From the sequence record AF017621.1: a stretch of 1,349 nt of DNA; one strand, written 5' to 3'. The notes under the pieces are model-generated. The model was not told the origin of the DNA. It was given only the letters and a program-made list of their open reading frames with translations, and did no database searches. The position numbers and the translations under genes are program-made. Positions 1 through 1,349 of the stretch are shown piece after piece. The stretch's first letter is position 1. Each line of letters opens with the position of its first letter. Origin of the DNA: a phage.

Positions 1-165
1 ATGCTGCGCCACATGGGTTGGACCGAAGCCGCAGACCTGATTGTTAAAGGTATGGAAGGCGCAATCAATGCGAAGACCGTAACCTATGACTTCGAACGTC
101 TGATGGAAGGCGCTAAACTGTTGAAATGTTCAGAGTTTGGTGACGCGATCATCAAGAACATGTAA
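1..165 (+). CDS. icd: Isocitrate dehydrogenase (NADP-dependent), C-terminal 54 codons plus stop; 5'-partial, the gene continues upstream of the window. It could alternatively be a displaced icd 3' pseudogene fragment (icdC-like) if the full gene is not upstream.
   Basis: Frame 1 translates without a stop to [54 protein letters not shown] then TAA at 163..165. This is near-identical to the C-terminus of E. coli Icd as I remember it. The six-frame track omits it, presumably only because it is short and truncated. Confidence 0.9.
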
Positions 166-232: not shown

Positions 233-268
233 TTCCCCAAAACTTTCCCCAAAACCCTTCCCCAAAAC
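233..268. repeat. Three tandem direct repeats of the 11-mer TTCCCCAAAAC, starting at 233, 245 and 258 (spacers of 1 and 2 nt). Candidate arm-type (P'-arm-like) integrase binding sites of the attachment region.
   Basis: Exact 11/11 identity in all three copies, read directly from the sequence. They lie in the 113-bp gap between the icd stop and the int stop, which is where lambda carries its three tandem P' arm sites relative to int. The function is inferred; the repeats themselves are certain. Confidence 0.5.
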
Positions 269-278
269 TGGCTATTTT

Positions 279-1349
279 CTATGCTGTTTTGATATCTACG
301 ATAACCCAGTCTTTACCACGATCATCATTGTATCGGTCGGTCATTTTTCTGGATTTATGGCCTAACAACTTTTGCGTATCCAGACCCTGTTCCCGATATA
401 ACCGTTCTGACAGAGATCGCTGCTCATGAAATGTGGGCGCAGTTCCTTGCTCCCATTTTATGCCACATTTTTCCCTGGCCTTTTTAAAAGCCGTTGTCAG
501 AGTATTTGCAGAAACCTGGTCTCCTCTGTTTGCTTGAGAGGTAGTGTGACGGTAATGGACCAGATATTTACTAACAACAGCATCCCTGCACTGAGATATA
601 ACTTCACGAAGGGTAATATTCAGAGCATCGCATTTCAGGTTAAGCGGAATAGCAAGTTTTGAACCGGTTTTTTCCTGAGTAATGTGCAACATGTCGTCCC
701 ATATATCAGAGAATTTCAAATTGCAGATATCGCCTAAACGTTGTCCAGTAACAAGAGCAAGTAGCATGCCGCATTTTAAATAGGGCTGCCGTCTGCTTAC
801 GATTTCAAATATTGCCTGCCATTCGGGCAGTGACAATCTTTGGCGGTTTACTCGATTTCGCGGTTGTTTTGTTGCCTGCGCTGGGTTAAATCCTGGCGGA
901 ACATGTCCTGCGTGTTGTGCTTCTTTGAAGACGTCGATCAACACCATTCTCACGACTTGCGCCATCCTGTTATGACCTTCAGCCTTTACAGCATCAATTA
1001 TTTCGGCAATATCAAGTGCGGTAATATCCTTGAGGTGTTGCATTCCACAATGCTCACGGAAAAGACGAATGGGTTTGCCTTTTTGCCGATAGGAGTTGGG
1101 TCTTAGTTCATTATGTTGCAGCCTGTCCTCCTGGATAGAAATATATTTATCAAGCCATTCTGTCACCGTAATGTCTGAGCGCCTGCCTTTCATTCTTTCC
1201 AGACGCTCATTGACGCTTAATATTTGTCTGGTACGTTGTTCAGCAATAATGGTATTTGCTTCAGTAGCAACTTGTTTTGCTTCATTCTCATCAGTTCCTA
1301 AGCTATGAAAACGACCGGATAGTGGATGTTTGTATTGCCAATATACCTT
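279..1349 (-). CDS. int: Lambda-family tyrosine recombinase (phage integrase), e14 IntE-like; 5'-partial, with the N-terminal arm-binding domain continuing past position 1349.
   Basis: The 304-aa ORF (279..1193) matches lambda Int motifs with the lambda spacing: R152 in TGQRLGD (lambda TGQRVGD), K175 in KTGSKLAIP (lambda KTGVKIAIP), H256 and R259 in PTFHEQRSLSERLY (lambda PTFHELRSLSARLY), H279 in LLGHK, and the nucleophile Y288 in DRYNDDRG (lambda QYRDDRG; codon at 330..332). The frame stays open from 1194 to 1349 and encodes KVYWQYKHPLSGRFHSLGTDENEAKQVATEANTIIAEQRTRQILSVNERLER, which resembles the lambda Int N-terminal domain (YYCYRDPRTGKEFGLGRDRRIAITEAIQANIEL). The Met at 1191..1193 is therefore internal, not the start. 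Confidence 0.95.
   Translation of the reverse strand, partial: KVYWQYKHPLSGRFHSLGTDENEAKQVATEANTIIAEQRTRQILSVNERLERMKGRRSDITVTEWLDKYISIQEDRLQHNELRPNSYRQKGKPIRLFREHCGMQHLKDITALDIAEIIDAVKAEGHNRMAQVVRMVLIDVFKEAQHAGHVPPGFNPAQATKQPRNRVNRQRLSLPEWQAIFEIVSRRQPYLKCGMLLALVTGQRLGDICNLKFSDIWDDMLHITQEKTGSKLAIPLNLKCDALNITLREVISQCRDAVVSKYLVHYRHTTSQANRGDQVSANTLTTAFKKAREKCGIKWEQGTAPTFHEQRSLSERLYREQGLDTQKLLGHKSRKMTDRYNDDRGKDWVIVDIKTA

Follow-up and report, generated by a model that had tools for sequence, protein, structure and literature searches.

Tandem repeats at the attL junction of a phage 21-type prophage as probable arm-type integrase sites, with candidate specificity classes among icd integrases

Results

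Three tandem repeats lie between the icd terminator and int

The stretch of DNA analyzed here (1,349 nucleotides of record AF017621.1, referred to hereafter as the window) opens with the 3' end of icd and runs out within an integrase gene on the opposite strand, with the icd terminator and three exact plus-strand copies of TTCCCCAAAAC lying between the two (Table 1). Successive copies start 12 and then 13 bp apart, and a gap of 10 bp separates the third from the int stop codon (279–281, minus strand). The initial annotation had described just such an array of three perfect 11-bp repeats, and our motif search recovers them with starts at 233, 245 and 258; its description of the spacing as near-helical holds for the 12–13 bp itself, while the helical fit is only loose (the P'1–P'3 sites of lambda are 10 bp apart). 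Its statement that the window holds no further copies also stands, on both strands and with up to two mismatches allowed. Tandem Repeats Finder returns the same three-copy array, and dinucleotide-preserving shuffles of the window (n = 200) averaged 0.45 matches and never exceeded 2, such that none of the 200 reached three and the array can be regarded as non-random.

Table 1. Features of the window (coordinates in nucleotides from its first letter)
Feature	Position	Strand	Basis
3' end of icd, last 54 codons and stop	1..165	+	ORF; annotated icd in E. coli genomes
Replacement icd copy, phage-borne, keeps icd intact after integration	from ~2 onward	+	
Left end of phage/host homology (TGCTGCGCCACATGGG...), putative core/crossover region for the Int catalytic domains	2..20	.	
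icd intrinsic terminator hairpin, 9–10 bp GC-rich stem, then T-run, phage side	189..211	+	annotated terminator
Probable P'1 arm-type site TTCCCCAAAAC, nearest the core	233..243	+	motif search, annotation, conservation
Probable P'2 arm-type site TTCCCCAAAAC	245..255	+	motif search, annotation, conservation
Probable P'3 arm-type site TTCCCCAAAAC, nearest the int stop	258..268	+	motif search, annotation, conservation
int, phage 21-type tyrosine integrase, last 356 of its 380 codons; truncated by the window end	279..1349	-	
int part for the N-terminal arm-DNA-binding domain, full-length residues 25–71	1209..1349	-	Pfam PF09003

The window is 98.1% identical over 1348 nt to phage 21 (OL657228, M61865), with which its element shares the gene order icd tail, terminator, repeats, int and xis; identities to ~25 other lambdoid coliphages range from 97 to 99%, and a prophage junction in E. 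coli SC516 matches at 99.9%. At least 80% of the window is present in 1625 of 5426 complete E. coli genomes (~30%). Since the order in SC516 is icd, repeats, int, xis, the window represents an attL junction, and is, judging by these identities, the attL of a phage 21-type prophage in E. coli icd. Phage 21 itself carries three copies base-for-base identical to those of the window, in the same place between the terminator of its icd-like segment (annotated as an icd-like pseudogene, the counterpart of window 1..165) and the int stop; the window differs in being the prophage attL form of a slightly different phage, so that the P-arm copy described below falls outside it.

Identity to phage 21 attP starts at window position 2, and further upstream phage P-arm DNA takes the place of icd. 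By the general rule for phages that integrate inside genes, the crossover would lie at this end of the homology; comparison of attL, attR and attP leaves its exact position ambiguous owing to allelic variation in icd. The phage-borne icd tail and the K-12 tail (L086 1166–1326) differ in a few codons (for example ...LMEGAKLL...IIKNM in the window vs ...LMDGAKLL...IIENM in K-12), and lysogeny would therefore slightly alter the C-terminus of isocitrate dehydrogenase, an alteration by e14 and phage 21 that is already known. The SC516 prophage (L005 5800–19400) is heavily degraded, with several IS1/IS3 insertions and truncated phage genes, and has trkG and an mcrBC-like system near its right end; the P' and P arm sites are nonetheless intact. 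This right end is partly e14-like (mcrC lies nearby), yet the P arm at attR is of phage 21 type.

The repeats have been noticed before. A misc_feature of OL657228 (27563..27599) covers the repeat bases and reads "attP ... 3 subsites P1P2P3; consensus YYTTCCCCAAAA", and the TTCCCCAAAAC repeats are thus a rediscovery, already annotated as part of the phage 21 attachment site; the suggestion in the initial annotation that they newly define a specificity does not survive. Work from the Campbell laboratory in 1992 and 1997 reportedly proposed the phage 21 repeats as arm sites, beginning with the "repeated dodecamers" of the Stanford thesis of S. J. Schneider (1992). Wang et al. 1997 (J Bacteriol 179:5705) are said to have placed the minimal attP between 366 and 418 bp, with the outermost dodecamers included; the outermost copies in phage 21 span 396 bp (L001 2872–3267), in agreement with that range. 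Full-text literature searches on the motif and on phage 21 arm sites returned no relevant match, and the phage 21 genome announcement does not discuss attP.

The integrase retains an arm-binding domain

The partial int of the window matches the Pfam family Arm-DNA-bind_1 (PF09003, E=1e-16, fragment residues 1–47), bearing out the earlier statement that the N-terminal arm-binding region is kept, and the ORF also matches Phage_integrase (E=6e-24). The first 24 codons lie outside the window; residues 1–24 include several of the class-specific positions discussed below. Phage 21 Int aligns with lambda Int (1z1b) over its whole length (E=8e-55), with five additional residues inserted in the first N-domain beta hairpin.

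The repeats are conserved while their surroundings diverge

A survey of relatives, taking one genome per bacterial species, yielded 80 loci whose integrases share between 50% and 99% identity with 21 Int; the genera represented include Kosakonia, Mangrovibacter, Trabulsiella, Buttiauxella, Edwardsiella, Proteus, Morganella, Providencia, Erwinia, Pantoea, Klebsiella, Xenorhabdus, Pectobacterium and Serratia. Given an integrase at least ~63% identical and an icd tail after it, there are always two to four copies of YTTCCCCAAAAY between the terminator hairpin and the int stop. Across 21 non-redundant loci with the window's motif (class A, below), TCCCCAAAA holds 2.0 bits at every position, as against 0–1.2 bits in most flanking columns and 1.4–1.7 bits in a few columns of the terminator-adjacent T-run. 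Copies were found by requiring AAAA and allowing up to three mismatches, a rule slightly biased toward conservation, and the near-perfection observed is far above that threshold. The start-to-start spacing in these 21 loci is 11 or 12 bp and then always 13 bp. Other genera have a non-homologous hairpin at the icd terminator position, and the distance from the icd stop to the repeats is constant in class A loci even there. The initial annotation had looked to related icd-integrated elements for conservation of the repeats relative to flanking bases, and this is what is seen across many genera of Enterobacterales. On this comparative evidence the repeats appear to be under selection, and their specificity appears to track the arm-binding domain.

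Several loci depart from the common arrangement. The P' array numbers four copies in L020 and two in L017; in L034 both the motif (GTTAGCAAAAC) and the N-domain (PMFSRKANK) are variant; the first repeat of L059 is interrupted by an insertion; and L072 carries decayed copies (TTCGCCAAAAC, CCACTAAAAC and TTCACCAAAAC) beside an N-terminally truncated int.

A single distal copy and an IHF consensus recur at fixed distances on the P arm

The far end of the element, where the initial annotation had pointed for further copies, does carry one. Phage 21 attP has a fourth copy, TTCCCCAAAAT, upstream of its icd-like segment, and attR of the 99.9%-identical SC516 lysogen carries it too, 23 kb from the repeats that match those of the window. 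In phage 21 and SC516 alike this copy starts at -129 from the start of icd homology (TGCTGCGCCAYATGGG), with a perfect IHF consensus (AATCAAACGGTTG) starting at -100; on the same scale P'1 of the window starts at +231 and its three copies span +231..+266. The core region TGCTGCGCCACATGGG is unlike the arm motif.

This layout recurs in other genera. Six independent P arms, representing three motif classes, each carry a single arm copy at -129 to -131 amid unrelated flanks (L001 2872–2913, phage 21 attP; L005 23363–23404; L086 16238–16279; also L045, L032 and L177), and five of the six have a perfect IHF consensus WATCAANNNNTTR (AATCAAnnnnTTR) at -100/-101. Three of the arms, two of class A (Proteus and Providencia) and one of class C (an IMG/VR contig), were recovered from tandem prophage arrays, and each has a single class-appropriate copy at -129 to -131; in the Proteus and Providencia class A arms the IHF consensus stands at -100/-101. 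The P-arm sequence around the copies cannot be aligned between genera. In a scan of IMG/VR for phage-form attP of classes C and D, most contigs end at the int stop; the class C P arm came from the tandem array L177, and for class D none was recovered. A scan of the P' arm for IHF gave no convincing site (the single one-mismatch match is inside icd), and a scan of the P arm gave no clear analogue of lambda P2.

The P arms hold further repeated elements. Between the IHF site and the core, a direct repeat is present twice in phage 21 (GTTGAATA, L001 2905–2990) and another twice in e14 (AATGAGTTATA, L086 16265–16310), and just past the IHF site of phage 21 there is an inverted, degenerate arm-like copy, ATTAGCCAAAATC (L001 2921–2936). 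These could possibly be Xis sites or a P2 analogue. The e14 P arm also contains TTCTGCAAAT (L086 16206–16216), which resembles the class C motif and lies ~22 nt upstream of the element's own class B copy; it could be a relic or a chance match.

The arrangement resembles that of lambda, with a longer reach to the core

In lambda (NC_001416), P'1 (AGGTCACTAT), P'2 (CAGTCAAAAT) and P'3 (AAATCATTAT) start 10 bp apart, at a distance of 55–85 bp from the overlap region; P'3 shares bases with the int stop codon, and a co-oriented P1 in the P arm is followed by H1. The arm consensus of lambda is C/AAGTCACTAT, and its integration employs P1, P'2 and P'3, its excision P2, P'1 and P'2. The phage 21 type shares with lambda three tandem direct P' copies abutting the int stop with the same polarity relative to int, one co-oriented distal copy on the P arm (like P1) followed by an IHF site (like H1), and an integrase with a PF09003 N-domain. 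The two differ in the arm motif, in the spacing (10 bp vs 12–13 bp in the window), in the distance of the P' sites from the core (55–85 bp vs ~231 bp in the phage 21 type, which carries the icd tail and terminator in between), and in P2 and H', for which we found no clear analogue in phage 21. The lambda-like placement in relation to int claimed in the initial annotation is right, as the overlap of lambda P'3 with the int stop illustrates; the distance to the core is not lambda-like.

The e14 element of E. coli K-12 offers a closer comparison. Its attB too is in icd; at attL the icd terminator is followed by three copies, and at attR a single P-arm copy starts at -129, with an IHF consensus at -100. 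It differs in its motif, GTTATCAAAAC, and in a class B Int N-domain (NLYPLYSRK...); moreover, an insertion of ymfD, ymfE and lit separates the repeats from intE, such that the repeats sit beside icd, 3 kb from intE.

Arm motif and integrase N-domain vary together

Integrases 50–61% identical to 21 Int are found in the same layout (icd stop, hairpin, three tandem repeats, int stop) with another 5' half-site. Four motifs can be distinguished: class A, TTCCCCAAAAC (phage 21 and the window); class B, GTTATCAAAAC (Klebsiella, Proteus and Xenorhabdus, and also E. coli K-12 e14); class C, TTCTGCAAAAC or CCTGCAAAAC (Xenorhabdus, Providencia, Serratia); and class D, TCAGTAAAAT (Pectobacterium, Symbiopectobacterium). 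The initial annotation expected the motif to define the arm specificity of this integrase family; this applies to the 21-type class, and not to the icd-integrase family as a whole, in which e14 and others have different 5' half-sites. Within the first 45 residues the N-domains divide likewise, with ...NLY-x-KLDKR... in class A, ...NLYPLYSRK... in class B, ...GLSCYTDART... in class C and ...NLFCFxDPRT... in class D. Loci were first assigned to a class from the N-domain only, after which the motif adjoining the int stop or the icd terminator was read; the two assignments agree at 72 of 73 distinct loci (A–A 22, B–B 33, C–C 13, D–D 4). Neither cargo genes between int and the repeats (e14) nor a target gene other than icd disturbs the agreement.

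The lone discordant locus (L032, Providencia alcalifaciens BIGb0506, int at 3001–4131) has a class A N-domain and class B repeats, of which just two good copies follow int. Residues 1 to ~290 of this integrase are 82–97% identical to class A Providencia Int, whereas residues ~300 to the end (~300–375) and the following DNA are 90–95% identical to class B. We therefore rejected L032 as a counter-example, its int being a chimera with a class A 5' part and a class B 3' end plus downstream DNA; the locus lies in a tandem prophage array, and its int is probably a recombination product of neighboring icd prophages.

Class C integrases by a porin-like or ushA-like gene keep three copies of CTGCAAAAC, and class A integrases without icd nearby keep class A copies. 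The motif goes with the N-domain, not with the target gene. Among the class C loci away from icd, seven (L181, L183, L184, L189, L209, L212 and L081) have int 74 nt past a prematurely terminated OmpC/OmpF-like porin ORF (...YDFGMGINC*), and the prophage may interrupt or truncate the porin gene; in two others (L172 and L174), int instead follows a UshA-like gene and a hairpin.

The class-specific Int residues are positions 7–9, 16–24 and 29 (21 Int numbering), in the N-terminal tail and first beta hairpin. Going by its title, the study of Fadeev et al. 2009 identifies the N-terminal tail and beta hairpin as the elements that lambda uses for major-groove reading, and the class-specific residues of the icd integrases would then coincide with them.

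Discussion

The three repeats are very probably the P' arm-type binding sites of the phage 21-type integrase, lying in an attL junction. They have the features of arm-type sites, namely an integrase with an arm-binding domain and a short motif, unlike the core, that recurs on both arms of attP, and the original reading of them as such is supported by the comparisons made here. We observe the sites themselves with their geometry and conservation, their occurrence on both arms, and the agreement between motif and N-domain class; physical binding by the N-domain, a requirement in recombination and the pattern of bridging are what we infer from these observations.

Physical linkage of the repeats to int and xis means that part of the class-to-motif match could be co-inheritance, and this consideration lies behind the alternative that the repeats bind another co-inherited protein of the element, most plausibly the excisionase. 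The xis gene is immediately upstream of int, overlapping its start, and would show the same association of class and motif, and tandem direct repeats are typical of Xis sites. In lambda, however, Xis binds the P arm, at sites between P2 and the core, and not the P' arm beside int (PMC4880445), while three P' copies abutting the int stop, together with a distal P copy and an IHF site, match P'1–3 and P1–H1; the GTTGAATA repeats of phage 21 and AATGAGTTATA repeats of e14 are better placed to serve Xis. We consider it improbable that the repeats belong to Xis rather than to the Int N-domain. An RNA-level role in the 3' UTR of int, in stability, retroregulation or a G-quadruplex, is suggested by the three minus-strand copies of GUUUUGGGGAA, 10 nt past the int stop and ahead of a hairpin that might act as a terminator for int; yet a copy of the motif also stands on the P arm, at a constant distance from the core and beyond any int transcript, classes B, C and D have no G-runs, and the e14 repeats adjoin icd, 3 kb from intE, all of which makes such a role highly improbable. 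We rejected an RNA element on the strength of an Rfam search, which gave only two sub-threshold chance matches at a permissive threshold, and a G-quadruplex on the grounds that the fourth G-run relies on non-conserved spacer and that classes B–D are without G-runs.

It is scarcely credible that the repeats are functionless products of slippage, or a structural A-tract element with no specific protein partner. Copy number does vary slightly (two in L017, four in L020), as slippage would allow, but a 9-bp core is invariant across genera whose flanks randomize, the 5' halves are class-specific, phasing at 12–13 bp would not sum A-tract bends coherently, and the 200 shuffles failed to reproduce the pattern. 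The conservation data in effect refute chance or slippage. Recognition of the repeats by the integrase N-domain is the reading that we develop below.

Heterobivalent bridging of arm and core sites, assisted by IHF, is the established mechanism of lambda integrase (PMC4880445). By analogy, the small N-terminal domain of phage 21-type Int would bind TTCCCCAAAAC with high affinity at four arm sites, while its core-binding and catalytic domains would bind the crossover region in icd, ~231 bp away. Bending of the arms by IHF (for which the P arm has a clear site and the P' arm none that is clear) and Xis would allow Int to bridge arm and core sites and so form an intasome. This complex would recombine attP with attB in integration and, with the help of Xis, attL with attR in excision; the P' sites in the attL of the window would serve the latter. 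With class-specific arm motifs, 21-type and e14-type elements that share the icd attB would be assembled solely by their own integrases. Class-specific arm recognition would thereby let the two types share one attB and recombine only their own att sites, which is, going by the title, the theme of Wang et al. 1997.

We lean, by a little, towards a more general reading, in which the icd integrases and their retargeted close relatives comprise at least four arm classes built on one intasome geometry (P at -129, IHF at -100, three P' sites from ~+231) and carry a readable recognition code. In this four-class reading the 11-bp arm sites would differ solely in the 5' half (TTCCC, GTTAT, TTCTG or TCAGT, then CAAAAY or AAAAT), and Int solely at roughly a dozen positions (7–9, 16–24, 29) in its N-terminal tail and first beta hairpin. 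That 21 and e14 differ in this respect was known before; the picture of four classes, the constant geometry and the candidate code may be undescribed.

For the finding as first given, little changes: a reader working from the sequence alone correctly recognized the arm sites of a classical phage. From the wider pattern follow simple rules by which attL and attR of the icd prophages, which are very common, can be annotated from sequence. Class specificity could explain the lack of cross-excision between co-resident 21-type and e14-type elements, and the four-class code, if true, would explain how tandem prophages sharing one attB excise independently. The classes form a natural series of arm sites and N-domains on a constant att scaffold, one that could guide the engineering of orthogonal lambda-type integrases.
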